DNA from: a bacterium
GTDB taxonomy: Bacteria > Patescibacteriota > Minisyncoccia > Phycocordibacterales > UBA2100
Length of the DNA stretch: 64,000 nucleotides
Direction: 5' to 3'
Assembly (NCBI GenBank): GCA_030674455.1
Contig: JAUSGQ010000006.1
Location: 15,654 to 79,653, forward strand
The notes beneath the pieces were generated by a model, which saw nothing but the letters and a program-made list of their open reading frames with translations, did not search any database and was not told where the DNA came from. Shown piece by piece: positions 4,217 through 50,660 of this stretch (within the stretch, counting starts at the first letter, position 1; every line of letters starts with the position of its first letter). The position numbers were made by a program, and so were the translations under genes.

Positions 4217-5800
<1,584 letters not shown>

Positions 5801-6300: not shown

Positions 6301-7176
6301 TTAAAACCCCAGCGCTTTCAGGAAATCTTGCAATTCTTTTCCCTGAATAGGGCGGTGTTCGCCTGGCTGTAGGTGGCCCAGTTTTACATTCATAATTCTT
6401 TTTCTTTCAATTCCGGATGCGTCGAGGCCGAAGACTCCGCACATTCTTCTTATCTGATGCTTCTTGCCTTCGGTGAGTGTTATCGAAAATTTGTTATAGC
6501 TTAAGAGTTCAATTTTGCATGGCTTGGTTACGTAGCCGCCGATATCTATCCCTTTTTCCATTTTCTCTTTGAAATCAGCGGACAAGTTTGTGGTACAAGT
6601 GACCCAGTATTCTTTTTCATGCACGAAGTCGGGATTAAGAAGCGGGTCTACGATTCTTCCGTCGTCGGTGAGAATAATTAATCCGAACGAATCCTTGTCC
6701 AATCGGCCGACTGGGAAGACGTTCTTGAGATTCTTCGGCAATATCATCGCAATATCTTCTTCCTTTTCGCCCCGTCTACACGGCGAATCAGCAGATTCGT
6801 GGCTTGGCCTGCCGATACCCGCCTTATCGGCCTGCGGGGAGTGAGTGATAATTCCTCGCGGTTTGTTGTAGGCGTAGTACCTGCAATTCTTCGCGCGCCA
6901 TTTCACATCCACGACATCTTTCTCGGTAATTTTATCGCCAAGCACCGCAACTCTTCCATTGATAAAAACTTTGCCCTGTTTTATCACTTCATCCGCCTCG
7001 CGCCGCGTGCAGTACTTCTTAGAAGCGAGGTACTTATTAATCCGCATTGGGTATGCGGGCTTGATGATTGAGGGAGTCGGTTTATTGTTGGCCATGCAGA
7101 AGAGTATAGGCATTTCAGATTTATCCACAACTCCAGAATATTCCAACATTCTCAAGAATGTTGGAATATCATACAA
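6301..7176 (-). CDS. rRNA pseudouridine synthase, RsuA/RluB family (S4 domain + catalytic domain)
   Basis: N-terminal S4 RNA-binding domain (MRINKYLASKKYCTRREADEVIKQGKVFINGRV). Catalytic motif GRLDKDSFGLIILTDDG. Confidence 0.85.
   Translation of the reverse strand: MYDIPTFLRMLEYSGVVDKSEMPILFCMANNKPTPSIIKPAYPMRINKYLASKKYCTRREADEVIKQGKVFINGRVAVLGDKITEKDVVDVKWRAKNCRYYAYNKPRGIITHSPQADKAGIGRPSHESADSPCRRGEKEEDIAMILPKNLKNVFPVGRLDKDSFGLIILTDDGRIVDPLLNPDFVHEKEYWVTCTTNLSADFKEKMEKGIDIGGYVTKPCKIELLSYNKFSITLTEGKKHQIRRMCGVFGLDASGIERKRIMNVKLGHLQPGEHRPIQGKELQDFLKALGF
7141..7166. promoter_or_regulatory. perfect palindrome TTCCAACATTCTCAAGAATGTTGGAA, 25 bp upstream of the ArsR-like gene
   Basis: Copy of a 26-30-nt palindrome also present at 7460-7489 and 26983-27012, with a half-site at 9737-9757. 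Confidence 0.5.
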
Positions 7177-7191
7177 TAGACGGACAGCAGT

Positions 7192-7476
7192 ATGAATTCG
7201 GTTAAGACATCAAAACAAATGGAGCGGCATTTTAAGGGCATCGCTAATCACTGGCGAATCGACATCATTCAAATCGTTCGCAACCACCCAGGCATCACTG
7301 TCGACGGAATAGCTGAAATTGCCAACGGAAACTTCAAGACTATTTCGGAACATACGCGCCGTCTCGTGCATGCTGGTCTCATCAATAAGGAATATTCAGG
7401 GAGGTCTGTTACGCACACCTTATCTCCATATGGAAAAATCTTTTCGCGCTTTATAGAAACATTCCAACATTCTTGA
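7192..7476 (+). CDS. ArsR/SmtB-like winged-helix transcriptional regulator
   Basis: 94-aa wHTH pattern (IIQIVRNHPGITVDGIAEIANGNFKTISEHTRRLVHAGLINKEYSGRSVTHTLSPYG). Confidence 0.55.
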   Translation: MNSVKTSKQMERHFKGIANHWRIDIIQIVRNHPGITVDGIAEIANGNFKTISEHTRRLVHAGLINKEYSGRSVTHTLSPYGKIFSRFIETFQHS

Positions 7477-7489
7477 GAATGTTGGAATG
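7460..7489. promoter_or_regulatory. perfect 30-nt palindrome CATTCCAACATTCTTGAGAATGTTGGAATG overlapping the ArsR-like gene stop
   Basis: Second copy flanking the regulator. Confidence 0.5.
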
Positions 7490-7535
7490 TTCTGTGACAG
7501 TGAAATATTTTGTTCAAGAATGTTAAAGTAACTAC

Positions 7536-12407: not shown

Positions 12408-12441
12408 GGCAGTCTGACTGCCAAACGGCAGTCAGACTGCC
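12408..12441. terminator. hairpin GGCAGTCTGACTGCC-AAAC-GGCAGTCAGACTGCC
   Basis: Perfect 15-bp stem. Its AGTCTGACT core is shared with hairpins at 17389-17440 and 50610-50660. Confidence 0.45.
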
Positions 12442-17375: not shown

Positions 17376-17388
17376 GTGAATAGCACTC

Positions 17389-17440
17389 CACACAAGTCTG
17401 ACTTGTCTAACAAGTCAGACTTGTGTGGAGTGCAACGGAA
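17389..17440. terminator. 24-bp-arm perfect hairpin after typA
   Basis: GCACTCCACACAAGTCTGACTTGT-CTAA-ACAAGTCAGACTTGTGTGGAGTGC. Confidence 0.55.
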
Positions 17441-17490: not shown

Positions 17491-17530
17491 TCTAAAATAT
17501 CAGCTGTTCTGTGCCATGGCACAGAACAGC
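17491..17530. repeat. 17-bp-arm perfect palindrome ATCAGCTGTTCTGTGCC-ATGG-CACAGAACAGCTGAT
   Basis: Seen directly in sequence. Could be a terminator or a protein-binding site. Confidence 0.45.
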
Positions 17531-17744
17531 TGATGTGGATTTTGAGCATGTATTTTGCGCGAAGGTTTTTTAATATTCCTATCTTTTGATATTCCTTTTG
17601 CCCGCGTCGGAGTTATCCACTCTCACATCTTGTCGCTCGCGGAAAACAGAAGCACAATTGTAAGTACATAAATTATTATCGGGCGCTTGGCGCTCGATGT
17701 GTCGTTAGTCTTGAGAATTATTAATTATTAATAAATAAAATAGT

Positions 17745-20700
17745 ATGCAGAAGGTACATGGGTTCAGCGCGCGCGTGTTTCTTACCTCGTCCGCGATTTT
17801 GGTCGCGGCGATTTTATTATCAGCTTCCATGGTTAGCAAGGCGGACGCGGCCATAGGTCTCGATGTAACCGCATCACTCACCACTTTTAATCAGACAATC
17901 AAGGCCTCCAGCACGCCAACGGCAGTCATCGGGCTTAATCTTATAAGTGTAGCGAGTCCGGGTGTAGAGACCCTTGCATCCACAAGCATCGCCTTTTTTG
18001 GCGCGGGATTCGCGACCACTACTGACCTCGCGCCGCTCGGAACCGCTACGTCCTCCGGCGTAGCGCTCTATCGCGACGACGCTTCGGCGGGTACGCAGGG
18101 CGCTTTTGACGCATTCGACGACGTCGTTCCTCTTCAGAGCGCGTCGTGGGATGTCGCGGGCGCTACGACGACGTTATCATTCCTTACAAACGAAACAGTT
18201 CCAGTTAACGATACCGGCAACAACGCTGGCAACGACTACTTTATAGTAATACAGACCGCGGGGGGAGCTGTAAACCTTCATGCCTTTACGGCAAATATGT
18301 ATCCCGGCTCAATTCAATGGAACGCAAGTACGCCTACGGCGACTCCGATAGCATTGTCCACAAATACGGTAACGATAGACACAGCAGCGCCGACTCTAGA
18401 CACAAGCATGTCTGGACCAGCGAACGGTTCAACAGGTGTTCCTGTTTCCACCTTCATCCATCTCGGCTTCAGCGAGAACCTCGACCAGACGACACTGAAC
18501 CCGAACAACGTCACGCTTACTAGGGGCGGCAATGCGGTTGGAACGGCGATTCGTCCGTTTCCGAACGGCTTTGATTTGGTTGCATCCAGTCCTCCTACGT
18601 ACACGGCATCTTCGCGATTCGCGAAAGCAGACACGGTCAGCACCGGATTCTTCCAGATAAACGGCAGTAACCAGATATTCCCGCAGGGCGGATATTCGGC
18701 GCCGACGCGAGGAGACATCGTCTACACGCAAACGGATACTTTCCCGCCTGAAGTCGGAGTCATAACAAACGCCACTCTCACATCCGGCACCTTCGCGATA
18801 AACAACAACCCCGCGTTCCGTCCTCTACAGATAACCAAATTTGCTTCTCCAACGGTCGCGGGATACACGGGGGACGGCGCGGTTGTTGGAGTAGGCGATC
18901 TCCTTGTCGCGAATACTTCCGCAAAACCTTCCAACGTGCGTTACAACTGGCACATCGTAACGACAGGCCAGGCCCTTAACAATGCGGGCTTGCGCCTGGA
19001 CGGCGAAGATGCGGCTCCTACATACGCGACGACTACATTCGCGCGCCTTTTGCCCGCCGCGACCTCTACTATTGACGCATCGCAACTGTTCACAGCAACG
19101 ACTACCCTTATGGCCGGCGACCTTGTGTTTGCCAAAGTTGTGAGAGGCGGAGACAACCTGAATACATACGCGTGGCATCTTGTGACCACCGCAGAGACCA
19201 ACGATACAGTCACGGCGGCTCCGCCACAGGGAGCGACAGGTACTACGACCGCGCTTCGCCTAGACGGCGCGGCGGTCGCGCCGACATTCGCTGCGAGTTC
19301 AGTGGTTGCGGTTCTTGGTTTTGCCGCACAGGGGGTTCTTGACGGAGCAGTTGCACAGGATGCCACAGTTTTTAGTTTCGGGGACATAATGTTCGCAAAA
19401 ACAACAGATAATGCGGCCAATAACGGCTCTTATGCGTTCCACCTAGTGTCCAACGGCGCGACTGGCGCCACTTCTACCTCGCTCCGTCTTGACAACTCGG
19501 CGTCGAATCTTACTTCTTCCGCTTCCTATGTGATTACCGCGGGTACGGGTATAAAAGATTCCGCGGGCAACGCATTGGCCGCAACATCAACTATTACATT
19601 CACCACTGGCTCAACTGGCGGAACCAACACGACTCCTCCGGCGGTTCAAAACTCCCAACCGCAGGCGGGCAATCAATCGTTTGCTCCAAACGCTCCAATC
19701 AAGCTGATATTTTCTGTAGCTATGGAAGCGGGAAGCACAAGCGGGGCGAACTCGGTTACGAATACCGCCGTCGTCAAACTTTCAACAAGCGTGAACGGCA
19801 CGCCAACAACGCAGGTGACATCGGGCGTAACGAACAGCTACGACTCAACAACGAACACGCTGACAATCGCGCACACGAGCGCTCTTACAGTGAGTACTGA
19901 TTATGTAGTACAAGTGACAACCGCGGCAAAAAGTTCAACGGGCGCTTCGTTCCCGATGGAATATCGCCTCTACTTCAGGACAGGCACTGCTTCCGACAGC
20001 ACGGCGCCGACTATCCTCGGAGTCTCCCCGACAAATTCTTCGACGGGAGTTTCCATGAGCCCCGTTATTACAGCCGGATTCTCGAAAGACATGAATCCCG
20101 CGACGCTAACTACAACGACCGTAAAACTTGTGGAGACATTAAACAATAGCAATGCAGTTGCAGGAGGCGTTTCGTACAGCCCAAACAGCCGTTCCGTGAA
20201 CTTCGTTCCTTCTACCCCGCTTACAGCCAACACAGGATATTCATTCGTAATCGTTGGTGGTGCATCCGGCGTCACGGACCTCTCGAACAACGCTCTGGCG
20301 AGCCACTCCACTACAACCTTCACAACAACGGCAACCGTCGACGTCATCGCGCCTTCCGTCAACTTTGCCAACGCCGATGACTTCGGAATCGCTATCACGT
20401 TCTCCGAGCCGATGAAATCGGGAGGCGGTCCGAACGCCGCCGACAATGTCGCGAACTATACGCTTGAGAGTCCTACAGGCACCTCGATTTCTCTAGGAGG
20501 GAAAACCATAACGTATGACTCGGGCTCAAAAACCGCGCGCATCACGGGCTTGGCGCTTCAGAATGGCAACGGATACAAAGTTACTGTAGCGTTGCCGGTA
20601 CAAGACCTTGCCAGCAACGCTATTTCGATAGTCGGCACTCCAGCGGGCAACCTTGCCTTCGGTACTGTACAAAATTCCACAGCGACGGGCGGCCAGCTCG

Positions 20701-23700
20701 GGCCTGGCGGCGGAACGATGAACTTCAGCATGCAGGGCATGAACCCGACGCGCGTTTCTCCGGAAAGCCGCTCCGCTGGAGTAACGTCAAATTACAAAGT
20801 TGAATTCTTGGCCACTACAGCAATTCCTATCGGCGGGCAGATTCAGCTTGTCTTCCCGAGCGGATTCACGATTACAAATGCATCAACTACTGCCGCGGCA
20901 ACGTCGTTCTGCAACGCGGACCTGAACGGTCCGATGCCTGGGGTTCCCTCAATCGCCACGGTGACCAACGATAATTCTTCAGGAATCATCACGATAACCA
21001 CCGCCGCTTCTTCAACAGGCGCCTCCGCGTTCGTGTGCTTGGACGTAACGGGAGTTGTCAATTCAGCCGTTCCAAATTCAAGCGGATACACAGTAGACAT
21101 AAAGACCCGCGATACGGGAGACAATAATCGCGCGATACTTGAGACGAAGACATCATCGCCATTCTTCCTCGGGCAAGCGGGTTCCCGCACGCTCATTGCA
21201 AACGTATTCAACGACGGCAACGCTAACGGTGAGAAAGACGCGAATGAGGGCATAGCGGATGTGCGCGTATTCCTCTTCTCTCCGGCATCTGGAGGAAATT
21301 CAACTACTACAACCGCGACCGGCGTAGCGACATTCAACTCTCTTTCCGATGGCGACTATATGCTTGGACTCGACCCCGGGTCGTTGGCTAGCGCTTCTTC
21401 GACGGTTACGTTTAATTCCATGCCTCAGCCATTCATGGTATCCGCTACAAATCTGACGAAGAACTTTATAGTTTCCGGAGGAGGGAGCAGCGTGAACATA
21501 TCTGGAACTGTCACAGGCCCATCCGGCACAGCGGTTGACATCTTTGCTTCCAGCAACAACGGCTTTTCGAGAAAGACCGTAACGCTTTCAGGCGGAGCGG
21601 ACGACTATTCGATTCCCGTGAGTACGAATACAATTTACAACGTAGGAGTCGGCCCGGCGATGCCTGAAGCATTCTTCACTCCAGGAGCCCCTCCGCCTCC
21701 GCCGCCTACATTCACCTTCATGCCGCCTCCTAATATCACGGTAACTGTCGCGACAACGTCAATAACGGGCAAAGATTTCTCGCTTACAACCGCGAGTAAA
21801 ACGATTACCGGAACGGTGCGCGATTCTACTGGAGCCGCAGTTTCAAACGCCGGCGTATTCGCTCGGCCTATGTCGAACTCATCGGGCGCGGAAGTCGGTT
21901 TTGGAACCGGAGGACAAACGAATACTTCCGGCTCGTTCACTCTTAACGTAGTACCCGGAACGTATCTGGTCGGCGTATTCAAAGGCGGAATGCCGAATGT
22001 GCCGGACCAGCAAATTACAGTTCCATCTAGCGGGGCCAACACTCCTGCCTCGCTCGCGTTTTCTCTGGGGGCTGGAACGTCTATAACGATTTCCGGAACG
22101 GTGAAAGACGATGGAGGCAACGCGATTCCTTACGCGGGCGTAAACGCGCGCAAAGTGAACTCGTCATCCGACACGACGTCTATGGGCGGAGGCTCGCAAA
22201 ACTTCGTCGGAGGTCCGACGGATTCCAACGGCGCGTACACGCTCTATGTCGACTCGGGAACTTGGGTAGTTGAGGCGTTTGCCCCCGGATTCGGCAGGCT
22301 CGGCCAGAAAACTCTGTCAGTTACGGCAAGCCTCTCCGGACAGGACTTCTCAGCGCAGACGCTTTCTATCGGAACCATAACCGGCACAACTACCAAAGCA
22401 AGCGTCGAGCAACAAGGCGTAATGGTGCGGGCTGACGGCGCGGCGGGCTCCAACATGGCTGTCTCGGATGCTTCCGGCGTATACACGCTGAAAGTCCCGG
22501 CCGGAACTTATAACCTTACCTGTTTCTTCCCGGGTGTCGGCGAATCCGCGCCATTAACGGGAGTCGTGGCAGTAGTGAACGAGACGTCATACAATAATAA
22601 TTGTACTCTTGCTTCTCCCATAACCATTACTGTCAATCTGACGGACGGTACCAATCCGATTACCGGCGCGTACATAGACGTGCGCGATTCGAACGGCCGC
22701 GGAAATGGAACAAACGTTTCGGCCACCTCTAGCACTCTCGCGACCTACACGGTTACCGTGCCTCCGGGAACATATACGGTGCGTGCGGGACATCCAGCGT
22801 ACGGAACGATAGGAAGCACTGGCAACGTCTCCACAACCCAAACTATTACCTACACTACGACTGCGGGCGCTACGAGGGCAATTACGGGCACCGTTTCTGA
22901 CGGCTCGGCCGGAATCAACGGGGCATGGGTGTCGCTCACCGGAACTCCGACAGGTCAAACTAATACGATAAATACTGGAGCGCAGACAGATTCCACGGGT
23001 GCCTTCACGCTCAATGTTCCTGCAGGGGGCTATACAATCCACGCAAACAAAGGGGGATATATAGCTTCCGGCGCTGACTCAACGGTTACAGTCGCTGGAG
23101 CGGCGGTTTCGGTAGGTACCATAACTCTTACGGCCTCAACGCAAACGATATCAGGCACAGTAACATTGGATAATGTTGGTGTTTCCGGCGCTTATGTAGA
23201 CGCCTCCGCCCCCGGCGGCGGATTTGCGGTGTCGCAAACCGATTCCGCCGGCGCGTACTCGCTTGCTGTGAAGAATGGCACGTGGACAGTGCGCGCTCAC
23301 GCGATGGGATATGAAGGCGGGCCCACTACGGTCACGGTCGCGGGCAACAGCCCGACACAGGGAATTGCACTCACTGCAATTACGGGCTTCGTCTCAAAGC
23401 CCGAACATCAGGAGACAGTAACGCCCACCTCGGGAGGATATCTGACGAACTCCGACATCGGGGACAAGTTCAAAATGAGCATTCCGGCTAACGCCTTGGG
23501 CACGGGTTCAAACGCGGTCACTGTGAAAACCCAGGCGTACACGACTCTTCCTAACCCGTCATCGGGCAGCGTTCTTGCTAAAAATGGACTCTCGTTCTCC
23601 GCGGTTGATTCTTCCGGCCAGCCGATAAAAACTCTGAACAGTCCTATCACGATAGTTATTCCTTATACTGAAGCCGATATACCGACAGGAAAGACTGAAG

Positions 23701-24887
23701 CGGACCTAGTGTTCGGAACATGGAATGGAACCGACTATGAGACCTTGCCGACAACAGTAGACACGGTAAACAACACCTTGACGGTAACCATCTCGCACTT
23801 CTCCAGTTTCGCTCCGTTGGTGCAGGGTAATGTCGCAGTGGCAGCCGCTGCGGCTGCAACTACGGCCACGGTTAGTCCCGGCGGCGGGGGAGTCATGGGA
23901 GGAGGCGGGGCTACGAACATTCCGAAAGCACGCGCTCAAATTATTTATCCTGATGGACGCATCGCCTACGTAGACCAGATAGGAGGGGAATCTGCTCCTT
24001 CCGCGAGCGCAACTGCGGGAGCGAGTTCCGCATCTGCATCTTCGGCAGTCTCGGCCTCGGCCAAGTTCACCGCGCTTTTGAAACAGGGCTCCAAGGGTTC
24101 GGATGTTAAGCGACTCCAGAAACTTCTTGGTGTTGAGGAAACGGGATTCTTCGGCGCGCTTACGCGCGCCGCAGTTGAGCAATTCCAAATAAAGTATGGA
24201 ATTGCAAAGAAAGGACAAGCTGGTTTTGGAACTCTTGGACCCAAGACAAGAGCTAAAATCGCAGAGGCATTTAGTTCGACAGCAGCGGCTAGCTCCCCGC
24301 AGGCAGGCACTGCGGCTCCCGAAATCGGTTCGCTTGCGATACTTGCCGGAGGCCAGTTTGTTCGTTCGCTCAATCTTCGCGCGAAGGGAAGCGACGTGCG
24401 TACTCTTCAACAAATTTTGAACAGCGACCCAGACACGCGCGTCTCATCCGAAGGCGCAGGTTCTCCGGGCGGCGAAACGACTTTCTTTGGCGGCGCAACT
24501 CTGAAAGCCGTGCAGAAATTCCAAGTGAAGCATGATATCGCGAAGCCAGGCAATATCGGATACGGAAATGTCGGGCCGAAAACAAGGGCTAAGCTGAACG
24601 AACTCCTAAATGCATCAAGTTCCGGAGGTGTCTCCCTGCCTACCGGCCAGGCAGGCTCACCTTTAGGGGGAGGTGACTCCTCGGGAACATCTGCCTCCAC
24701 TGCCAACACAGCATCCGCATCTGCCGAAGCTTCAACCGCGGCAGCAGTAACCGCGACAACAACCCCGACGTCGTTAGTCGGGGCTCCGACCGAAAGCGTC
24801 GGAGCTGAAACTGCCGCAACGACCACTGCCGCGACAACAGTAGCGGCTACAGCAACTACCACCGCAACTTCCACAGCGAGCAATTAA
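17745..24887 (+). CDS. giant (2380 aa) secreted surface protein: Ig-like/Big and carboxypeptidase-regulatory-like repeats, C-terminal tandem peptidoglycan-binding domains
   Basis: Signal peptide. Repeated SPxNxxTGV Big-like modules and many VSGTVxD...G beta-sandwich repeats. Two PG_binding_1-like modules near the C-terminus (GSDVKRLQKLLGV...GFGTLGPKTRAKI; GSDVRTLQQIL...GYGNVGPKTRAKL) and a low-complexity Ala/Thr tail. In-frame Element B copy at about 24640-24700. Confidence 0.85.
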   Translation: MQKVHGFSARVFLTSSAILVAAILLSASMVSKADAAIGLDVTASLTTFNQTIKASSTPTAVIGLNLISVASPGVETLASTSIAFFGAGFATTTDLAPLGTATSSGVALYRDDASAGTQGAFDAFDDVVPLQSASWDVAGATTTLSFLTNETVPVNDTGNNAGNDYFIVIQTAGGAVNLHAFTANMYPGSIQWNASTPTATPIALSTNTVTIDTAAPTLDTSMSGPANGSTGVPVSTFIHLGFSENLDQTTLNPNNVTLTRGGNAVGTAIRPFPNGFDLVASSPPTYTASSRFAKADTVSTGFFQINGSNQIFPQGGYSAPTRGDIVYTQTDTFPPEVGVITNATLTSGTFAINNNPAFRPLQITKFASPTVAGYTGDGAVVGVGDLLVANTSAKPSNVRYNWHIVTTGQALNNAGLRLDGEDAAPTYATTTFARLLPAATSTIDASQLFTATTTLMAGDLVFAKVVRGGDNLNTYAWHLVTTAETNDTVTAAPPQGATGTTTALRLDGAAVAPTFAASSVVAVLGFAAQGVLDGAVAQDATVFSFGDIMFAKTTDNAANNGSYAFHLVSNGATGATSTSLRLDNSASNLTSSASYVITAGTGIKDSAGNALAATSTITFTTGSTGGTNTTPPAVQNSQPQAGNQSFAPNAPIKLIFSVAMEAGSTSGANSVTNTAVVKLSTSVNGTPTTQVTSGVTNSYDSTTNTLTIAHTSALTVSTDYVVQVTTAAKSSTGASFPMEYRLYFRTGTASDSTAPTILGVSPTNSSTGVSMSPVITAGFSKDMNPATLTTTTVKLVETLNNSNAVAGGVSYSPNSRSVNFVPSTPLTANTGYSFVIVGGASGVTDLSNNALASHSTTTFTTTATVDVIAPSVNFANADDFGIAITFSEPMKSGGGPNAADNVANYTLESPTGTSISLGGKTITYDSGSKTARITGLALQNGNGYKVTVALPVQDLASNAISIVGTPAGNLAFGTVQNSTATGGQLGPGGGTMNFSMQGMNPTRVSPESRSAGVTSNYKVEFLATTAIPIGGQIQLVFPSGFTITNASTTAAATSFCNADLNGPMPGVPSIATVTNDNSSGIITITTAASSTGASAFVCLDVTGVVNSAVPNSSGYTVDIKTRDTGDNNRAILETKTSSPFFLGQAGSRTLIANVFNDGNANGEKDANEGIADVRVFLFSPASGGNSTTTTATGVATFNSLSDGDYMLGLDPGSLASASSTVTFNSMPQPFMVSATNLTKNFIVSGGGSSVNISGTVTGPSGTAVDIFASSNNGFSRKTVTLSGGADDYSIPVSTNTIYNVGVGPAMPEAFFTPGAPPPPPPTFTFMPPPNITVTVATTSITGKDFSLTTASKTITGTVRDSTGAAVSNAGVFARPMSNSSGAEVGFGTGGQTNTSGSFTLNVVPGTYLVGVFKGGMPNVPDQQITVPSSGANTPASLAFSLGAGTSITISGTVKDDGGNAIPYAGVNARKVNSSSDTTSMGGGSQNFVGGPTDSNGAYTLYVDSGTWVVEAFAPGFGRLGQKTLSVTASLSGQDFSAQTLSIGTITGTTTKASVEQQGVMVRADGAAGSNMAVSDASGVYTLKVPAGTYNLTCFFPGVGESAPLTGVVAVVNETSYNNNCTLASPITITVNLTDGTNPITGAYIDVRDSNGRGNGTNVSATSSTLATYTVTVPPGTYTVRAGHPAYGTIGSTGNVSTTQTITYTTTAGATRAITGTVSDGSAGINGAWVSLTGTPTGQTNTINTGAQTDSTGAFTLNVPAGGYTIHANKGGYIASGADSTVTVAGAAVSVGTITLTASTQTISGTVTLDNVGVSGAYVDASAPGGGFAVSQTDSAGAYSLAVKNGTWTVRAHAMGYEGGPTTVTVAGNSPTQGIALTAITGFVSKPEHQETVTPTSGGYLTNSDIGDKFKMSIPANALGTGSNAVTVKTQAYTTLPNPSSGSVLAKNGLSFSAVDSSGQPIKTLNSPITIVIPYTEADIPTGKTEADLVFGTWNGTDYETLPTTVDTVNNTLTVTISHFSSFAPLVQGNVAVAAAAAATTATVSPGGGGVMGGGGATNIPKARAQIIYPDGRIAYVDQIGGESAPSASATAGASSASASSAVSASAKFTALLKQGSKGSDVKRLQKLLGVEETGFFGALTRAAVEQFQIKYGIAKKGQAGFGTLGPKTRAKIAEAFSSTAAASSPQAGTAAPEIGSLAILAGGQFVRSLNLRAKGSDVRTLQQILNSDPDTRVSSEGAGSPGGETTFFGGATLKAVQKFQVKHDIAKPGNIGYGNVGPKTRAKLNELLNASSSGGVSLPTGQAGSPLGGGDSSGTSASTANTASASAEASTAAAVTATTTPTSLVGAPTESVGAETAATTTAATTVAATATTTATSTASN

Positions 24888-24898
24888 AGAGGCGGGAA

Positions 24899-24938
24899 AA
24901 GGTGAGACCTTGGGAGTGATTCTTTAAGGTCTCACCTT
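24899..24938. terminator. hairpin AAGGTGAGACCTT / AAGGTCTCACCTT with loop GGGAGTGATTCTTT
   Basis: Loop is near-identical to the loop of the 10780-10827 hairpin. Confidence 0.5.
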
Positions 24939-24955
24939 GAAAGGACAAGGTGTTT

Positions 24956-25060
24956 CCTCAGGCATAGCCGGAGGTGACTCCTTGTCCGCATCCCGCACAA
25001 AGAAATTCCCGAGGTGACTCCTTGGCATTTGCAAGGTGTCTCCTCGAGAATTCTTGAAAT
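24956..25060. repeat. cluster of Element B (GAGGTGACTCC / GGAGTCACCTC) palindromic repeats
   Basis: CCGGAGGTGACTCC and CCCGAGGTGACTCCTTGGCATTTGCAAGGTGTCTCCTCGAGAATTC. Related copies at 31281-31345, 34761-34830, 48381-48430 and 7-53. Confidence 0.6.
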
Positions 25061-25074
25061 GGTAGAATAACGGG

Positions 25075-25692
25075 ATGGATATCTTTTCACACGGGCTTTG
25101 GGCAGGTGCGGCAGCGAAAGCCGCAAACAAAATAAGTTCCCGAGGTGACTCCCTGCCTGCCTCTGGCAGGCTCACCGAAGGGGGAGGCGACTCCTCACGT
25201 AGGGAGGTGTCGCCTCCATGCAGCTCAAAACTAAACGTCTGGCACGCGGCCGCGTGGGGAGTGTTTCCGGATTTGTTTGCGTTCACTCCGGCATTCATCG
25301 GCCTCTTTTGGTTACTCGCCACAGGCCAGATGAGTTTATCAGAGTGGCCGGGTCGGCATGGCGGCGAGCCCTCACCGGGCGACTCGCTTCCCGTATTTCA
25401 ACTCGCTGGCCAGCTCTACAATTTCAGCCACAGCATTTTTGTGTTTGCGATCGTGTTTTGCATTGTGTGGTTCATGCGAAAAAAGCCAGTGCTTGAAATG
25501 GGCGGCTGGCTTCTCCACATCATCATGGATATCCCGACGCATTCATACGCGTTCTATCCGACGCCCGTCTTCTGGCCGCTCTTTGGATGGAAATTCAACG
25601 GCATTCAGTGGGCGCAGCCGTGGTTTTTGATTCTCGATTACGGCTTATTGATTTTGGTGTATTGGTTGTTGAGGGAGAAGAAAATCAAATAA
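25075..25692 (+). CDS. membrane protein, possibly DUF457/YdjM-like metal-dependent hydrolase; N-terminal region carries in-frame repeat elements
   Basis: N-terminal MDIFSHGLWAGAAA, hydrophobic helices, HIIMDIPTHSYAF. Residues 20-60 are encoded by Element A/B copies at 25141-25215. Confidence 0.4.
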   Translation: MDIFSHGLWAGAAAKAANKISSRGDSLPASGRLTEGGGDSSRREVSPPCSSKLNVWHAAAWGVFPDLFAFTPAFIGLFWLLATGQMSLSEWPGRHGGEPSPGDSLPVFQLAGQLYNFSHSIFVFAIVFCIVWFMRKKPVLEMGGWLLHIIMDIPTHSYAFYPTPVFWPLFGWKFNGIQWAQPWFLILDYGLLILVYWLLREKKIK

Positions 25693-26934: not shown

Positions 26935-26982
26935 ATTGAGATGTCATCTCAATGGGTTTCGTATAAAAAGCTTGACCAACGA

Positions 26983-27012
26983 CATTCCAACATTCTCAAG
27001 AATGTTGGAATG
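26983..27012. repeat. third copy of the 30-nt perfect palindrome CATTCCAACATTCTCAAGAATGTTGGAATG
   Basis: Lies between the convergent sortase and toxin genes. Confidence 0.5.
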
Positions 27013-27023
27013 TTATCCATACG

Positions 27024-30055: not shown

Positions 30056-31543
30056 ATGAAAACTATAAACACGTTTGTCGCGATAGCTTTATTTGCGTTT
30101 GGTGCGCCTTTTTTTGCGTTTGCCGATGATAACGTCGGTGACGGCAATGTAATTCCGCCTCCGGGTTATACGGATTATATTCCTACTCCCGGCTATACAG
30201 ACTACATTCCGACCCCGGGATACACGGATTATGTTCCATCGTACGGCTCTCAAGCCTACGATGTCTACGACGTTTACGGAACTTCTCCGACTTACGACTA
30301 CTACTCCACGTCTCCGAATTACTACGCTACCACTCCTAATTATTACTCTAGTCCAAGTTACTACAGTTCCACACCGACTTATTACCCGACGACTCCGGTA
30401 TATTCGTCTCCGGGTGTAGCTGCAGCTCCTATTTACTCTTACTCGCCTACGAATACGACAATAACAGAGACCACTTCAACTTGGGCTCCTTCGGAAGTTT
30501 ACACTTACGCGCCGACCTCAACGTGGGCGCCGACAGAAATATATTCTCCGAGCGAAATTTACACTTACTCGCCTACGACAGTTTCCAATTACTCTCCAAC
30601 AAGTATCTACGCTCCGAACGACAGCCACGATTACGCCCCGACTACGGTTACCACAGACAGCCACAACTACACCGGTCCGGTTACCATCTCGGTAGTCTCG
30701 CAAGCCCCAGCGCAAAGCCCTGTGCAATACGTTTCGGGAGGCGGAACGTACTTCAACAACTCTCCTTCGTACAACAATTCTCCCTCGTACTACAACACGC
30801 CGAGCTACTTCCCGCCGGCGCCTGCGCCTTCTTGCAGAATCGTTGCCAGCGGTGGATACGGCTCCGGCTACGGTAACAATGCAGTTGTACTCTCTTGGAC
30901 TTCTTCGAATGCCAACAGCGGATACATCTCTCCGCTCGTAGGCACTGTCGCTCCTTCCGGCTCGACGACTGTTTACCCGAACGCCAATACTCTCTACACG
31001 CTCACGGTTTCGGGCAATGGCGGAACTTCTTCCTGCCAAACGTATGCCGGTTACAGCAACTATGTTGCTCCTGCCGCTCCGGTCTACACAGCTCCGGTTG
31101 CGCAAGCGGCCGCAGTAGCTCCGTATGTCGCCCTCACGCAGATTCCTTACACGGGATTTGACTTCGGCACCTTCGGCAACGCCATGTACTGGCTCGTGCT
31201 TGCGGGATTCGCTGTCGCCGCTTCCTACCTTGTACTCTACTTCCGCGGTGGCGCATTCGCGCTCGTCGGCTCGATGTTGCGAGGAAAGAATTCTCGAGGA
31301 GACACCTCCCCCTTGGGGGTGAGGAGTCACCTCGGAAATGCCGGAAAGACCGCTGAATTCGCGACGTCACGAGTTTCCGAGGAGACACCTTCCCTGCCCG
31401 CCGAAGCTTCAGCGCAGGCAGGCAAAAGCGAAGGAGTCACCTCGAACCTCGGAACTTCTGCCCGTGGCACGAATGATTCAATGATTTCCGTCGGTTCAGT
31501 AGAGGGCGGAATGGGTCCGCGCATCGTAGTACTCCGCGCTTAA
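30056..31543 (+). CDS. secreted Ser/Thr/Tyr/Pro-rich repeat surface protein with C-terminal IPYTG-TM-basic tail (candidate sortase substrate)
   Basis: Signal peptide. PTPGYTDYIPTPGYTDYIPTPGYTDYVP repeats. A Cys-bracketed LSWTSSNANSG domain like those in the 2619-4082 protein. IPYTG at 31142-31156 followed by a hydrophobic helix and RGG...R. The cytoplasmic tail is extended by Element A/B insertions. Confidence 0.7.
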   Translation: MKTINTFVAIALFAFGAPFFAFADDNVGDGNVIPPPGYTDYIPTPGYTDYIPTPGYTDYVPSYGSQAYDVYDVYGTSPTYDYYSTSPNYYATTPNYYSSPSYYSSTPTYYPTTPVYSSPGVAAAPIYSYSPTNTTITETTSTWAPSEVYTYAPTSTWAPTEIYSPSEIYTYSPTTVSNYSPTSIYAPNDSHDYAPTTVTTDSHNYTGPVTISVVSQAPAQSPVQYVSGGGTYFNNSPSYNNSPSYYNTPSYFPPAPAPSCRIVASGGYGSGYGNNAVVLSWTSSNANSGYISPLVGTVAPSGSTTVYPNANTLYTLTVSGNGGTSSCQTYAGYSNYVAPAAPVYTAPVAQAAAVAPYVALTQIPYTGFDFGTFGNAMYWLVLAGFAVAASYLVLYFRGGAFALVGSMLRGKNSRGDTSPLGVRSHLGNAGKTAEFATSRVSEETPSLPAEASAQAGKSEGVTSNLGTSARGTNDSMISVGSVEGGMGPRIVVLRA

Positions 31544-31574: not shown

Positions 31575-31660
31575 ATAGACACCTGTAGACGGCCTATCGT
31601 TTGTGATAGGCACCTGTAGACGGCCTATCGTTCATGATAGACACCTGTAGACGGTCCGTG
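31575..31660. repeat. three tandem 31-bp copies of Element C (CACCTGTAGACGG core)
   Basis: ATAGACACCTGTAGACGGCCTATCG(TTTGTG) repeated three times. Confidence 0.65.
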
Positions 31661-31783
31661 AGCTCCCCCTCCTTCGCCTCCTCCTTCGCATAAAGCTACG
31701 GAAGGACAAAGAAGGCTTCGGAGGGCAAAGAAAGCGAAAGCAACAAAAACCGCCTCAATGGCGGTTTTTGTTTTGTGGCTATA

Positions 31784-34213: not shown

Positions 34214-37200
34214 TCAAAGCGCCTTAGCCTTTTCCACCACGAAGCTGGACTCTCCGTTGCGCAATGAGAATTTGCCTTTCAGCATGACGCATGTACCGGC
34301 GATTATGCTCGGTTCGTTTTCTTTGAGCGTGCGAGGGAAAAGGACTATTTCAACGCTTCCCGAATAATCAGAGAGGCGGCCGAATGCCATGCGCTCGCCG
34401 TTCTTGGTCAGAATGTACTGGAGATTCTCGAGCAGTCCTGCGATGACAGTTTCTGTTCCTTTGGGGAACGTTTCTTTCGCGACGCCGATGGCCATCTTTT
34501 GTTTCGCCAGTTTTTCTTTATGCGCGTCCAAAGGATGGCCTGATACGTACAATCCGAGAAGTTCCTTCTCCCAGGTTAGCCGCTGTGTCATTGTGGCGGG
34601 CGGTGCAGGTTTAAGGGAGAGCTTTGCCGGAAAGAACGCACCTCCGCCGGAGGCGGATCCGCCTCCGGCGGAGAATAGGGAACTCTGATTAGTCGGAATG
34701 TCGGTATGTTCTTTGTGAAAGCTCAAAAGTAGGTCGATGTTCGCGAGAAGCTGTCCGCGGGTGTCCGCATCAGAGGTGACTCCTCCTTTGGAGGTGTCTC
34801 CTCGGATGCTGGAGGAGTCACCTCGGGCTAGTTCGTCCAATGCTCCGCATTTAATAAGAGACTCGAGAGATTTTTTATTTAAGTTTTTGTCCGGAACTCT
34901 GCTTAAGAAATCTCCAACGTCGGTAAACTTCTTTCCTTTCTCCATTGCTATCATTATGGAGTCGGCGACACCCGTGCCGAAATTCTTTATCGAGTATAAG
35001 CCAAATCTAATGCTCTTGTCGTCCACTACCGTAAAATTTCCCTGGCTCTCGTTGACGGACGGCGGAAGAATCTTCAATCCCATGCGCGCGCATTCCGCGA
35101 CGACGATAGCCACTTTATCCACATCGCCTGCGTCCGCGGTAAGGACAGAAGCCATGTAGTCGACAGGGAAATTAGCCTTCATGTAAGCCGTTTTATAGGC
35201 TAAGTTACCGTAAGATGCCGCGTGCGCTTTGTTGAAACCATACGCGGCAAAAGTCTCGATTTGTTCCCAGAGTTTCTGGACGAGTGCCTCTTTCATTCCA
35301 TGTTTCAAGCAACCGCGAGTAAATTTCTCTTTTTGCGCGCGCATCTCAACAGGGATTTTCTTTCCCATTGCTTTACGGAACTTATCGGCTTCAAGCCACG
35401 TATAACCTGCGATTTTAGTTGCAATTTCCAAGACATCGTCCTGATATGTGATAACTCCATACGAATTTTTTAGAATCGTTTCCATGCGCGGGTCCAAATA
35501 TTCCACCTGCTCCGGATGCTTCTTGCGCTCGATGTAATTGGGGATGAATGCCATGGGGCCCGGCCGATAGAGCGCGACCATCGCGTTGATGTCGTGAATG
35601 CTTGTGGGCTCGAGATTGATGAGGTGGCTCGTCATGCCTGCGCTCGCGAGCTGGAACACGCCGAGTGTTTCTCCGCGCCCGAGCATCTCGAACGTTTTTT
35701 TGTCGTCGAGCGGTAGGCGGTCAAGATCGATTTTTATTTGCAAACGCTTTTCCACGCGCACGATTGAATCCGCAAGAACGGAAAGGTTCGTGAGTCCCAA
35801 GAAGTCGAATTTCAGAAGCCCCGCGTCTTCCACCGCATACATATCGTATTGCGTTATTTTCTTTCCTCCTTTCGGGTCGAGTTGCACGGGGACGTAATCG
35901 GTGACCGGCCCCGGCGCAATGACGACGCCCGCGGCGTGAACGCCCATGTGCCGCGCGTTTCCCTCGACTTTTTTGGACAGGTTGATAATTTCCCGCGCAT
36001 CCGGGTCGCGCTTGTACATTTCTTTAAGCTCCGGAACTTCCTCGAGCGCGCCGTCTATGGTGACGGGGAATCCCTGCTTGCCGAACGGTATCAGCTTCGC
36101 GATGGTGTCGCCCGTGCCGTATGCGTGGCCGAGCGCGCGGGAGACATCGCGCACCGCCGCGCGCGCCATCATGGTGCCGAACGTCCCTATTTGCGCAACA
36201 TGGTTTTCTCCGTACTTTTCGCGCACGTAATCAATGAGCTCGTCGCGCCGGTTGTCCGCGAGGTCCATATCGATATCGGGCGGGGATGGGCGCTCGGGGT
36301 TTAGGAATCGTTCAAAGGGAAGCTGATACTCTATCGGGTTCACCGTGGTAATGCCCGAAAGATACGAAACAAGCGAGCCGGCAGCCGACCCCCTCGTGTT
36401 GGTAAGAATTCCTTTTTCTCGCGCGTGCCGCAAAAGGTCTGCGACCACGAGAAAGTACGGAGAATAGCCTTTCTCCTCAATGACCGAAAGTTCGTACTCC
36501 ACGCGTTTCTTGTTTTTTTCCGTTTCTGACATTCCACGTTCCTTGAATCCCGCGTATGCCATTTCGCGTAGAACATCGTTGTGGGATGTACCTTTGGGAA
36601 CCGGAAATTCAGGGAATACCCACGTGCCGAGCTTCAGTTCGAGGTTGCAGGCCTCGGCGATATTAACGGAATTCGCAAGCGCTTCGGGATATTTTGCAAA
36701 AATCTCCATCGCTTTCGCGCGCGTCATGAATGAAAAATCGGGCGCATTTTCTGCGAAGTCGCGGTTCAAGACGCTCGCCGAACGGATTTTATCCACGAGC
36801 TCGCGCGCAAGCGCGTCCTCCTTTTCCATGTAGTAGACCTCCTGCGAGGCGACTAGGCCGATGCCCGATTCCCGCGCAAGCGAAGCGATACTTTTCATCA
36901 ATTTCTCGTGCCCTTCGATTTCCGGATGATGCGTGATCTCTGCGTAACATCCGCCGGCGGGCGGAGAGCCGAAAACGGAAACATGCCAGCGCGCGGAATC
37001 CTTTGCCCGCTCTATCGCTTTATCTTTGAGCGCGCGGGAATGCTCGCCGTCTTGCGCCGGCAAAATCGCTATCAAACCCTCGCGATGCATTTCAATAAGC
37101 TCGCGGTCAACGCGGGGACGCACAAAGAATCCTTCCAGATGCGATTTTGTGACAAGTTGTATGAGATTGCGATATCCCTCTTTATTCTTTGCCAATAGAA

Positions 37201-37471
37201 CGAGGCGTGTCGGCGAATCGTCAACGCGATGTTCTTTGTCGCGCATCGTGCGCGTCGCGACAAAGAAATCGACGCCGATTATCGGCTTTATTCCTTTCCC
37301 CTTGCATTCTTTGTAGAACTCAATCGCTCCATAAAGATTTCCGTTATCGGTTAGCGCGAGTACTCGTTGTCCGTCGGCAGCGGCAGCATCAACAAGAGTG
37401 GGAATTTGAGGCAGAGCCTCGAGAAGCGAATAATGAGAATGCGTATGCAGGTTAACGAAATCGGGTTCCAT
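34214..37471 (-). CDS. dnaE: DNA polymerase III alpha subunit
   Basis: N-terminal PHP domain (VNLHTHSHYSLLEA), polymerase core and C-terminal OB fold. Contains an in-frame 32-nt perfect palindrome at 34642-34673 and an Element B cluster at 34761-34830. Confidence 0.95.
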   Translation of the reverse strand: MEPDFVNLHTHSHYSLLEALPQIPTLVDAAAADGQRVLALTDNGNLYGAIEFYKECKGKGIKPIIGVDFFVATRTMRDKEHRVDDSPTRLVLLAKNKEGYRNLIQLVTKSHLEGFFVRPRVDRELIEMHREGLIAILPAQDGEHSRALKDKAIERAKDSARWHVSVFGSPPAGGCYAEITHHPEIEGHEKLMKSIASLARESGIGLVASQEVYYMEKEDALARELVDKIRSASVLNRDFAENAPDFSFMTRAKAMEIFAKYPEALANSVNIAEACNLELKLGTWVFPEFPVPKGTSHNDVLREMAYAGFKERGMSETEKNKKRVEYELSVIEEKGYSPYFLVVADLLRHAREKGILTNTRGSAAGSLVSYLSGITTVNPIEYQLPFERFLNPERPSPPDIDMDLADNRRDELIDYVREKYGENHVAQIGTFGTMMARAAVRDVSRALGHAYGTGDTIAKLIPFGKQGFPVTIDGALEEVPELKEMYKRDPDAREIINLSKKVEGNARHMGVHAAGVVIAPGPVTDYVPVQLDPKGGKKITQYDMYAVEDAGLLKFDFLGLTNLSVLADSIVRVEKRLQIKIDLDRLPLDDKKTFEMLGRGETLGVFQLASAGMTSHLINLEPTSIHDINAMVALYRPGPMAFIPNYIERKKHPEQVEYLDPRMETILKNSYGVITYQDDVLEIATKIAGYTWLEADKFRKAMGKKIPVEMRAQKEKFTRGCLKHGMKEALVQKLWEQIETFAAYGFNKAHAASYGNLAYKTAYMKANFPVDYMASVLTADAGDVDKVAIVVAECARMGLKILPPSVNESQGNFTVVDDKSIRFGLYSIKNFGTGVADSIMIAMEKGKKFTDVGDFLSRVPDKNLNKKSLESLIKCGALDELARGDSSSIRGDTSKGGVTSDADTRGQLLANIDLLLSFHKEHTDIPTNQSSLFSAGGGSASGGGAFFPAKLSLKPAPPATMTQRLTWEKELLGLYVSGHPLDAHKEKLAKQKMAIGVAKETFPKGTETVIAGLLENLQYILTKNGERMAFGRLSDYSGSVEIVLFPRTLKENEPSIIAGTCVMLKGKFSLRNGESSFVVEKAKAL

Positions 37472-41754: not shown

Positions 41755-41790
41755 AATATACCATACTTGTACATTTGTACAAGTATGGTA
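41755..41790. promoter_or_regulatory. palindrome ATACCATACTTGTACATTTGTACAAGTATGGTAT at the 5' end of the regulator gene
   Basis: Perfect 16-bp arms. Confidence 0.45.
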
Positions 41791-41855
41791 TACACGATAA
41801 ATCATTAAATCATTCCTGCTTGCGATATATATTTGGTACAATGAGATTCAATGTA

Positions 41856-47749: not shown

Positions 47750-47840
47750 GTAAAAATGATACAACTTCTTGCGCGGAAGTCCAAAACTCAAATTCTTGTA
47801 TTCTCTTGAAATCGAGTATTGTGGTACAATCTTTTTTTCC

Positions 47841-48371
47841 ATGAATATTCATCCGCTCTTCGTGCATTTTCCTATCGCGCTTCTTGTCGTCTACGCGATT
47901 ATGGAGCTCATACATACGAACAGATTTACTCACAGCAACACCTATGCAAAAGTAAAAGGCTTTCTCGTTATTCTCGGAACATTTTCGGCATATTTGACGC
48001 TGGCGACCGGCGAGCTTGCGAGCGAATTGTTAGTCCAAAGCAGACCGGAACTCGAAAGACTTATTGAAACTCATGCGACGCTGGCGGGCGCATCGACGGC
48101 GATATTCTCCATACTCGCATTGTCATATTTGATTAAATTTCTTCTTGATTCCAAGCACGCAGCGGCCCCTGTCCTTGCGGCAAAGCTATTTTCGAACATC
48201 GTGGCGGCATTAAAGTGGTATTCAGAGGCGATTCGGGAGCATGTACTCGGCCAGATGCTCGCGCTTGCCGGAATTATTTGTATAACCATCGCCAGCGCCC
48301 TCGGCGCGGCAATCGTTTACGGGCCCGACGTAGACCCACTCGTTAATTTCATTTACCGGATGTTCTTTTAG
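47841..48371 (+). CDS. membrane protein, DUF2231-like (HPLFVHFPIAL motif)
   Basis: MNIHPLFVHFPIALLVVYAI plus further TM helices. Start at the internal ATG. Confidence 0.45.
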   Translation: MNIHPLFVHFPIALLVVYAIMELIHTNRFTHSNTYAKVKGFLVILGTFSAYLTLATGELASELLVQSRPELERLIETHATLAGASTAIFSILALSYLIKFLLDSKHAAAPVLAAKLFSNIVAALKWYSEAIREHVLGQMLALAGIICITIASALGAAIVYGPDVDPLVNFIYRMFF

Positions 48372-48380
48372 TTTTAGGAA

Positions 48381-48430
48381 TTTCCGAGGAGACACCTCCC
48401 CACACATGGGTGAGGAGTCACCTCGGAAAT
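48381..48430. repeat. Element B copy (TTTCCGAGGAGACACCTCC...GGGTGAGGAGTCACCTCGGAAATGCC), intergenic
   Basis: 24 nt are identical to 31325-31348. Imperfect ~20-bp hairpin with TTTCCGAGG/CCTCGGAAA ends. Confidence 0.65.
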
Positions 48431-48655
48431 GCCCAAGGTTGGACATTGGGTCAAATACATTGAGATGACATCTCAATGTATTTGACAGAAATACGAAGTC
48501 TGTTAACATTATTATATGAATCGGAAATTCACATCTTCGGTCGTCGTCCTCGTCGTTGCGCCGCTAGAGCGGGGACTGTAATACTGGAATAATAAACAAA
48601 GTATAACAGAAAACCCGCCAAACAGCGGGTTTTCTGCTAAACTACCAACAATATT

Positions 48656-50609: not shown

Positions 50610-50660
50610 AGGTTAGAGGTTAGTCAGACTAACCTGCCGTTAGTCTGACTAACCTCATGC
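50610..50660. terminator. hairpin GAGGTTAGTCAGACTAACCT-GCCG-TTAGTCTGACTAACCTC
   Basis: AGTCAGACT core between convergent genes. Confidence 0.5.

Follow-up and report, generated by a model that had tools for sequence, protein, structure and literature searches.

Selfish palindromic repeats within coding genes are known from a few lineages, namely the Rickettsia palindromic elements (RPEs), the intragenic repetitive extragenic palindromes (REPs) and the hairpin elements of mitochondria. RPEs, reportedly described by Ogata and colleagues in 2000, are about 100-150 bp long and not known outside Rickettsia. The usual size of REPs is 20-40 bp, and intragenic REPs and REP dimers, which have been argued to be neutral in flexible linkers, are found in genes for replication, repair and tRNA synthetases, the dnaE gene of Rickettsia conorii among them (Di Nocera et al. 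2013, PMC3733652, in which RPE-1/4/6 are also mentioned). In mitochondria, double-hairpin elements, repetitive hairpin-forming elements and yeast GC clusters combine conserved stems with variable loops, and the mitochondrial hairpin elements are dispersed, lie inside rRNA and protein genes at permissive sites and are retained in transcripts (PMC2800124). The present analysis deals with a 32-nt perfect palindrome (34642-34673) inside dnaE, the gene of the DNA polymerase III alpha subunit, in a 64,000-nt stretch of the patescibacterial contig JAUSGQ010000006.1, this whole stretch being called the window hereafter. The palindrome is very probably one copy of a dispersed, GC-rich, 30-nt double-hairpin repeat with selfish behaviour of the REP or MITE (miniature inverted-repeat transposable element) type, located in a predicted disordered linker of DnaE, and its interest is that of the family to which the element belongs.

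The dnaE palindrome and its insertion site

The gene hosting the palindrome (34214-37471, minus strand) encodes a protein of 1085 aa in which the PHP, DNA_pol3_alpha, finger, HHH_6 and OB domains (Pfam PF02811, PF07733, PF17657, PF14579 and PF01336) are present in full order, and which matches the solved enzymes of Thermus, E. coli and Mycobacterium with E=1e-189 or better (E=2e-220 for 2hpi, E=2e-200 for 5fku). A protein of the same sequence has been recorded from a metagenome-assembled genome (MAG) under the name DNA polymerase III subunit alpha, the nearest named relatives being those of Candidatus Kaiserbacteria (Patescibacteria, or candidate phyla radiation, CPR). In the initial annotation the palindrome had been placed in frame in the Pol III alpha gene and described as perfectly self-complementary over 16 + 16 nt; the first statement is borne out by the open reading frame (ORF) together with the domain set, and the second by a repeat finder and an independent scan of our own, which both gave CTCCGCCGGAGGCGGATCCGCCTCCGGCGGAG, made of the halves CTCCGCCGGAGGCGGA and TCCGCCTCCGGCGGAG, with 16-nt arms, 100% complementarity and zero spacer. 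A palindrome arm longer than 12 nt was never obtained in 20 mononucleotide shuffles of the window, and no second exact copy of the half-site was found within its 64 kb.

The outermost base pair of the palindrome falls within the Phe codon (TTC) on one side and the Gly codon (GGT) on the other. The actual repeat unit is 30 nt long (34643-34672) and corresponds to exactly 10 codons of the minus strand (aa 934-943), the 32-nt palindrome being this element plus one base of each flanking codon. Read in the dnaE frame, TCC GCC GGA GGC GGA TCC GCC TCC GGC GGA gives SAGGGSASGG, with the symmetry centre on a codon boundary, in the local peptide ...NQSSLF-SAGGGSASGG-GAFFPAKL..., and the flanks of this copy are CTATTC and GGTGCG. 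The element consists of two units, TCCGCC-GGA-GGCGGA (34643-34657) and TCCGCC-TCC-GGCGGA (34658-34672), and is the sole tandem pair of hairpins with 6-bp stem and 3-nt loop in the window, the shuffles containing 0. The dnaE copy, in the middle of which lies a BamHI site (GGATCC), folds as a single hairpin of 14-15 bp with energies of -20.8 kcal/mol as DNA (z -7.2) and -33.7 kcal/mol as RNA (z -5.8). Read directly from the sequence, the canonical 30-mer is stop-free in every frame of both strands.

The element starts right after the Phe codon of QSSLF (codons 929-933, 34673-34687, minus strand), which is predicted to be the internal beta-clamp-binding motif of Pol III alpha. It is preceded by the HhH domain (aa 798-882) and followed by the OB fold (aa 1009-1082, 34226-34447, minus strand; PF01336, with predicted beta strands at 1007-1084), which is downstream of the linker with the element, and this position fits a clamp motif of the form Qxx(L/M)F. 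Among 50 homologues, L932 and F933 never vary, and Q929 and S931 are the same in 90% or more. In E. coli alpha, the internal clamp-binding motif is formed by residues 920-924, QADMF (PMC3664792). An HMMER alignment to E. coli alpha was discarded for placing the motif because it mis-aligned this very region, and the assignment consequently rests on conservation and position.

In an AlphaFold2 model of the window DnaE, built on a 50-sequence alignment and having a mean predicted local distance difference test (pLDDT) score of 79.5, the only long segments of the C-terminal region with pLDDT below 50 are residues 884-902, corresponding to a second insert called Element B (see below), and residues 926-947, corresponding to the clamp motif and the palindrome insert. 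Residues 924-960 are modelled without secondary structure, and the alignment with solved structures of Pol III alpha breaks off at about aa 885 and resumes at about aa 954, leaving the inserts in between unaligned. Because both inserts fall in structure-free segments of low pLDDT, they are placed in predicted disordered linkers, and the pLDDT values and the gap in the structure alignment are thus in favour of the earlier proposal that they would sit in surface loops between the polymerase core and the OB domain. They had also been regarded as two independent palindromic inserts in the C-terminal region of DnaE, and both are indeed missing from most of 120 homologues. Altogether, these data support the palindrome as an independent palindromic insertion in a permissive DnaE linker, and the finding explains the wide length variation of the DnaE C-terminal linkers among close relatives.

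Among the 120 DnaE homologues, the loop is present only in P0001, P0002, P0004, P0005 and P0010, with a possible degenerate remnant in P0015, and the usual Kaiserbacteria-like DnaE reads QxSLF-GAx-xx without any loop. The loop peptides are SAGGGSASGGG in P0010, SAQGGSALGGG in P0004, SAEGGPASGGG in P0005 and SAGGGSPVGGGQGASGGG in P0002. The glycine-rich loop was found only in close relatives carrying the DNA element; its presence in DnaE of unrelated bacteria without the palindromic DNA, which the initial annotation had named as contrary to its reading, was not observed. The insertion is lineage-restricted.

The DNA of eight orthologues (L001-L008) was compared codon by codon around the insert. 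L001, with 75% protein and 71% nucleotide identity to the window gene, contains the same 32-nt perfect palindrome between different flanking codons, and 11/11 four-fold sites of the element are identical in both genes against 42% gene-wide (P about 7e-5), these sites belonging to the longest run (12) of identical four-fold sites of the gene. The 32-nt palindrome of L002 is still perfect, the change of GGA to CAA being mirrored by that of TCC to TTG, with Gly..Ser replaced by Gln..Leu in the protein. L003 reads TCCGCC-GAA-GGCGGA followed by CCCGCC-TCC-GGCGGG, where unit 2 has the paired changes T to C and A to G; as both hairpins are intact, this variant is not degenerate. Conservation is thus exerted at the nucleotide level and not at the protein level. 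As to the other orthologues, L004 carries a 21-nt insertion within the right arm, L007 and L008 hold one 11-nt sub-palindrome each, CTCCG(G/C)CGGAG, and the L006 linker is shorter than that of the window by 10 codons, exactly the 30 nt of the element. The partial deletions in L007 and L008 and the internal insertion in L004 would fit the idea, put forward in the initial annotation, of a recombination or stalling hotspot. A neighbour-joining DnaE tree shows a patchy distribution of the element: 4/8 members of the clade that includes the window have it, as does a single member of the sister clade. Such a pattern fits a deletion-prone palindrome that was lost several times, or else several gains at the same site; for the window's clade, loss is favoured by the remnants in L006, L007 and L008.

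Spread and architecture of the double-hairpin family

Genomes, one per species, were scanned with CCGCCNNNGGCGGATCCGCCNNNGGCGG, a 28-nt core of the form CCGCC-NNN-GGCGGATCCGCC-NNN-GGCGG, and matches were obtained at 120 or more loci in these species-representative genomes. Further copies of the palindrome, for which a genome search had been suggested from the outset, thereby turned out to form a repeat family widespread in other genomes. Among the matches listed, every one comes from a MAG and about half belong to many classes of Patescibacteria (Kaiser-, Saccharibacteria, Doudna-, Lipton-, Moran-, Magasanik-, Uhr- and further ones), the remaining hosts being labelled as Omnitrophota, Kiritimatiellae, Verrucomicrobiota, Lentisphaerae, Planctomycetes, Ignavibacteria (contigs of 1.6 Mb included), Bacteroidota, Chloroflexota, Desulfotomaculaceae, Margulisbacteria, Auribacterota and uncultured "Gammaproteobacteria". 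Copies are found in megabase-scale contigs at L039 and L083. Such breadth across many phylum-level lineages of mostly uncultured bacteria speaks for a mobilising activity common to them, or for their communities exchanging DNA frequently.

The family consensus is tTtT-CCGCC-RRA-GGCGGA-TCCGCC-TYY-GGCGG-AaAa, where, over 242 flanks, T makes up 96/61/83/59% from position -1 outwards to -4 and A does so in mirror image on the opposite side. Loop triplets are mainly AAA, AGA, GGA and GAA in unit 1, with their pyrimidine mirrors in unit 2, and all of these main triplets are derivable from GGA/TCC by C-to-T transitions on either strand. The GGA/TCC form of dnaE was for this reason taken as unmutated, and the perfect palindrome would then represent the element as it was prior to mutation. 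Perfect palindromes with the CAA/TTG variant of L002 are found again in unrelated phyla (L042, L057, L084 and L123). Six loci contain two copies (L014, L024, L031, L067, L103 and L116), which are complete double units and not single ends bracketing a transposase.

Outside these genomes, the matches from 72,556 plasmids, 50,697 phage records and the complete genomes of E. coli, all of them searched, were no more than partial ones arising by chance in GC-rich DNA, and only 2 contigs of IMG/VR match the element. A scan of 14 element-bearing loci (108 kb, the window copy itself being left out) against Rfam returned tRNA matches only. Full-text literature searches with the exact DNA and peptide strings led only to cloning primers and synthetic linkers, and keyword searches on hairpin insertions in CPR/Patescibacteria gave nothing relevant, no description of the element being found.

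As both stems had been fixed in the genome scan, metagenomes were scanned with unit 1 alone, TTTCCGCCNNNGGCGGA. Out of 131 oriented matches, 37 are directly followed by a 15-mer with a perfect 6-bp stem and a 3-nt loop, compared with 0/786 control offsets and 0/131 upstream 15-mers. The second stem is the same as the first (TCCGCC/GGCGGA) in 19/37 cases and different, with all six pairs compensated, in the other 18/37, among which TCAGCC/GGCTGA and CCAGCC/GGCTGG occur six times each and TGCGCC/GGCGCA, TCCTCC/GGAGGA, TTCGCC/GGCGAA, TCTGTC/GACAGA, TCCGGC/GCCGGA and CCCGCC/GGCGGG once each; three-unit chains and solo hairpins were also present in the metagenomes. These results show that the conserved feature is a pair of neighbouring hairpins, with stems of 6 bp and loops of 3 nt, kept by compensatory changes. 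A model of one long hairpin for the whole family was rejected, since the two loops are fully complementary in few copies (27/142, against 18.5 expected) and the copies with different second stems, which fold as two hairpins, cannot form the long stem. The perfect palindrome of dnaE is therefore a special case in which both stems are the same and the loops (GGA/TCC) are complementary. An anti-correlation between the middle bases of the two loops (p=1e-5) was also considered as a structural rule and dropped, because it vanishes once genic copies are oriented by coding strand, and thus reflects codon selection (K/E then S).

Regarding the location of the copies, 72/124 lie in stop-free stretches of at least 600 nt, and 40 of the 44 ORF-internal copies, a group limited to ORFs of 150 aa or more and to a distance of 40 codons or more from both ORF ends, share the frame of the dnaE copy, SAxGGSAxGG. 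All host proteins tested had a clear Pfam identity and contained the element in frame (10/10), these being DnaG primase, PheT, UvrB, a class I tRNA synthetase, Mfd, AspRS, RpoC, DnaJ, AtpD (ATP synthase beta) and RpoB, and the family is thus widespread and present in many essential genes. Four hosts could be judged by their conserved motifs (DnaE, AtpD, the class I synthetase and AspRS), and in these the codon before the element is one for Phe, presumably native to the host gene. Read along the coding strand, genic copies have loop codons for Lys/Glu then Ser in 24 cases as opposed to Arg/Gly then Phe/Leu in 4 (p=2e-4). The survival of hydrophilic versions in genes shows that peptide-level selection has shaped the loop codons there and, along with the intact ORFs, suggests that these copies are translated and filtered by that selection.

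A second perfect GGA/TCC copy was found in the L003 genome (L111:3036-3069), in another gene and another frame (PPEADPPPAD). This copy apparently links the riboflavin-kinase-like and cytidylyltransferase-like halves of a 258-aa ORF, and the element may possibly have bridged two genes there. The PheT gene of a Campbellbacteria genome (L024:4444-6930) holds two element copies 1020 nt apart, and also has an unusual NlpC/P60 Pfam match in the middle of the synthetase.

Signs of mobility were looked for in the flanks. Using the 30-nt element definition, adjacent 7-nt direct repeats matching at 6/7 positions or more (AGGATTT, AAAAGTC and CAATTT(A/T) for example) flank 8/132 copies, against 0.72 expected from random flank pairing; the signal is weaker at 6 nt (7 copies against 2.2 expected) and disappears at 8 nt and beyond, and near-adjacent direct repeats of at least 7 nt are seen in 17/139 copies against 3.7 expected. 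Exact adjacent target duplications had been sought beforehand with a 28-nt definition of the element and none was found, the 30-nt repetition leaving the above signal of 7 nt in a minority of copies. In the flanks of L072, L070, L071, L046 and L116, one 7-8 nt AT-rich motif (e.g. AAAAGTC, AATCTTT) is present in 2-3 tandem copies, which look as if target duplications had accumulated over several rounds of insertion and excision.

The double hairpin is also found as a part of larger repeats. A 77-nt composite repeat, CAGAATTTTTAATTTACAATTTCCAATTTT[double hairpin]CAATCAATTTTCAAGCC, whose double hairpin is the variant copy TCCGCCAAAGGCGGA-CCCTCCTCCGGAGGG, is located in the rpmF-rnhB spacer of L002 (L002:1339-1415) and L006 (L006:1807-1883) and in the rpsP-smc spacer of L008 (L008:1687-1763), with 74/77 identical positions. 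This composite repeat is not present in the window, and the fetched loci of L001, L003, L004 and L007, in which the rpmF-rnhB spacer was covered, contain no other double hairpin. In a Kiritimatiellae MAG, a repeat about 190 nt long, present at least 3 times, has the element as its 5' part. Copy numbers amount to one in the 64-kb window, at least two in the L003 genome and at least four in one Kiritimatiellae MAG. No parent insertion sequence with the same ends was found, no dedicated search having been made. Taken together, these observations fit a mobile or recombinationally spread module that is also part of larger, lineage-specific mosaic repeats.

Element B and other repeats of the window

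Element B, the second in-frame repeat insert of dnaE, is unrelated to the double-hairpin element. It forms a cluster (34761-34830) of three copies of GAGGTGACTCCTC in alternating orientation, in frame at about aa 881-904, encoding RGDSS/GGVTS. Its 14-nt arms (34773-34786 and 34811-34824) are 100% complementary, with the third, degenerate copy between them. The initial annotation had located this cluster at 90 nt from the palindrome; the cluster is real and the measured distance is 88 nt. With up to 2 mismatches allowed, GAGGTGACTCCTC has 18 matches in the window against 0.16 expected. Further copies are located at 9-22, 24670-25217, 31295-31443 and 48385-48424, some of them at or just past the 3' ends of the ORFs 17745-24887, 30056-31543 and 47769-48371. 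At the dnaE site of Element B, relatives carry highly variable inserts, which reach about 90 aa in P0015.

The window is otherwise rich in palindromes, with about 28 distinct ones having arms of at least 9 nt, compared with 0-9 matches in shuffles, where the arms are no longer than 12 nt. Several long palindromes that are unique and perfect or nearly so, their arms measuring 15-24 nt, are present at 12408-12441, 17383-17433, 17499-17534, 41757-41792, 48450-48486 and 50616-50656, and three near-identical AT-rich perfect palindromes, ATTCCAACATTCTnnAGAATGTTGGAAT, with 15-16 nt arms at 7138-7169, 7458-7491 and 26982-27013, a partial one being found at 9725. A GC-rich family of nested palindromes, CCCGCC-TTCGCCGAGGCTTC-GGCGGG (4514, 16332, 31392, 43910, 44923, 45526 and 55938), resembles the dnaE element in style but differs in its architecture, an outer 6-bp stem being placed around an inner GCC..GGC hairpin. 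Another repeat family, with the core CCGTCTACAGGTGCCGAT...ATCGGC, combines a conserved 5' part with a variable small hairpin after it and occurs at 5333, 9703, 26717, 31575-31667, where three 31-nt units are in tandem, 37550, 45361, 62206 and 63488, one copy being located just upstream of dnaE.

Explanations of the element and comparison with known systems

Several other explanations of the dnaE palindrome were weighed. The peptide resembles a classic flexible linker, lies in a predicted disordered region and, in genic copies, has loop codons under peptide-level selection, so that a Gly/Ser/Ala linker could itself have been selected in DnaE, the palindrome being a by-product of the complementarity of GGN with TCC/GCC codons. 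This explanation is largely refuted and extremely improbable: the 11/11 four-fold sites are the same between orthologues near synonymous saturation, L002 replaces Gly by Gln and Ser by Leu through exactly complementary codons, the same DNA is found in unrelated proteins, in other frames (PPEADPPPAD in L111) and in intergenic DNA, and most DnaE homologues have no loop. A nucleic-acid signal specific to dnaE, whether an attenuator or terminator, a ribosome-pausing hairpin after the clamp motif or a protein-binding palindrome, is considered very unlikely. Such a signal would agree with the high stability of the RNA hairpin given above, with the nucleotide-level conservation in L001 and with a terminator-like call on the dnaE sense strand (34631-34674, minus strand), where the palindrome stem is followed by TGCGTTCTTT. 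However, L001 and L002 retain the palindrome without the T-rich tail, for which reason an intrinsic terminator was rejected and the pattern judged incidental; the family consensus, with T upstream and A downstream, is the reverse of a terminator, the element is missing or truncated in most close relatives and occurs in many other genes, on either strand, as well as between genes, and no Rfam family was found in the 14 element-bearing loci.

The palindrome could also have arisen on the spot by template switching, that is, by hairpin-primed inverted duplication in a stretch rich in GGC-GGA, without any dispersed element. The 11-nt sub-palindrome of L007 and L008 could seed a larger one and the complementary change of L002 resembles the correction of a quasi-palindrome; nevertheless, with the same 28-30 nt at 120 or more loci of unrelated genomes, a copy elsewhere in the genome of a close relative (L111) and the perfect CAA/TTG palindrome of L042, L057, L084 and L123, a purely local origin is highly improbable, although template switching may still help to keep the arms complementary. 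Finally, a perfect palindrome with a central BamHI site, in a family whose listed hosts are all MAGs, calls to mind an adapter, a linker or a chimeric inverted repeat produced in library construction or assembly. The chances of such an artefact are practically negligible in view of the presence of the element or its variants at the same dnaE codon in five independent assemblies from different projects (the window included), the intact ORFs and 40/44 frame bias, the variation of the loops by transitions and the copies in megabase-scale contigs.

The dispersed double-hairpin repeat remains the preferred explanation, and the element is, or was, presumably mobile. Its movement may involve a hairpin-recognising transposition with target duplications of 6-7 nt in some copies. 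As the canonical element has 10 codons and is stop-free in every frame, it would simply be translated, here into a flexible Ser/Ala/Gly linker tolerated by the polymerase, and most likely does nothing for DnaE. A bolder version of this explanation is possible, though doubtful: the dnaE palindrome would be a pristine copy of an undescribed, still mobile, cross-phylum 30-nt double hairpin, the smallest transposable unit known, whose ten stop-free codons become a harmless linker in RpoB, RpoC, DnaE, DnaG and AtpD, and whose spread is due to a hairpin-recognising enzyme that CPR bacteria have in common with the groundwater and sediment phyla occurring alongside them.

Several points weigh against a dispersed mobile repeat. 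The dnaE copy has no flanking direct repeat, and a 30-nt element with a 7-nt duplication amounts to 37 nt and breaks the frame, so that in-frame copies need a 6-nt duplication, none at all, or secondary changes. No transposase or other mobilising gene was identified, the host genomes not having been searched systematically for Y1 transposases, and no pair of filled and empty sites with near-identical flanks was found, which leaves recent mobility unproven. The "empty" orthologues L006, L007 and L008 hold remnant-like fragments (TCC GGC GGA GGC; TCC GCC GGA GGC), and the history could consequently be one old insertion followed by repeated partial deletions instead of repeated insertion. A single copy in 64 kb is low for a REP-like family, and the near-identity of the sequence across phyla is unusual for REP families and unaccounted for. 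The taxonomic labels of the MAGs were accepted at face value. Stem conservation in the set from the genome scan, in which the stem sequences were fixed, is by construction.

What would be new in this family, besides its breadth across phyla, is its extreme minimalism, two 15-nt hairpins, and its hosts, which are among the most conserved enzymes of the cell. Such inserts inflate and diversify the "universal" marker proteins on which phylogenies and the quality control of MAGs rely, the loops similar to GS linkers at permissive sites provide a map of insertion tolerance in essential enzymes, and strong cruciform-prone sequences are thereby placed inside replication genes.

Compared with REPs, bacterial interspersed mosaic elements (BIMEs) and REP doublets forming hairpins (REPINs), the element is similarly made of small GC-rich stem-loop units, often paired and able to fold into a larger hairpin, its 6-bp stems and 3-nt loops falling within the REP range of 5-13 bp for stems and 2-20 nt for loops; it is likewise dispersed and located at times within larger mosaic repeats, as REPs are within BIMEs, the examples here being those of 77 nt and about 190 nt. 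On the other hand, it has no GTAG/CGTC tag, its flanks being T-rich on the left and A-rich on the right, its units are only 15 nt long and abut without spacer, its copy number is low here, and it is nearly the same across many phyla, unlike REP families, which are mostly restricted to a species or genus. With RPEs it shares the nature of palindromic selfish DNA residing in frame in protein-coding genes, essential ones included, and translated as extra surface peptides, but it differs by its length of 30 nt, its unrelated sequence and its occurrence in many phyla. Two adjacent GC-rich hairpins in an AT-richer genome are also reminiscent of the mitochondrial hairpin elements, which belong to organelles of fungi and sponges and have no sequence relationship to it, the resemblance being an analogy of form and not the mark of one family. 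As in MITEs, the halves of the element are inverted repeats (a trivial property in a palindrome), short direct repeats flank a minority of copies, and there is no coding capacity; however, 30 nt is far below the described MITE sizes, and the duplication signal is seen in about 6% of copies and not at dnaE. Distinctive of the present family is its stop-free design of 30 nt and ten codons, in which two hairpins with 3-nt loops abut each other, near-identical across many uncultured phyla.

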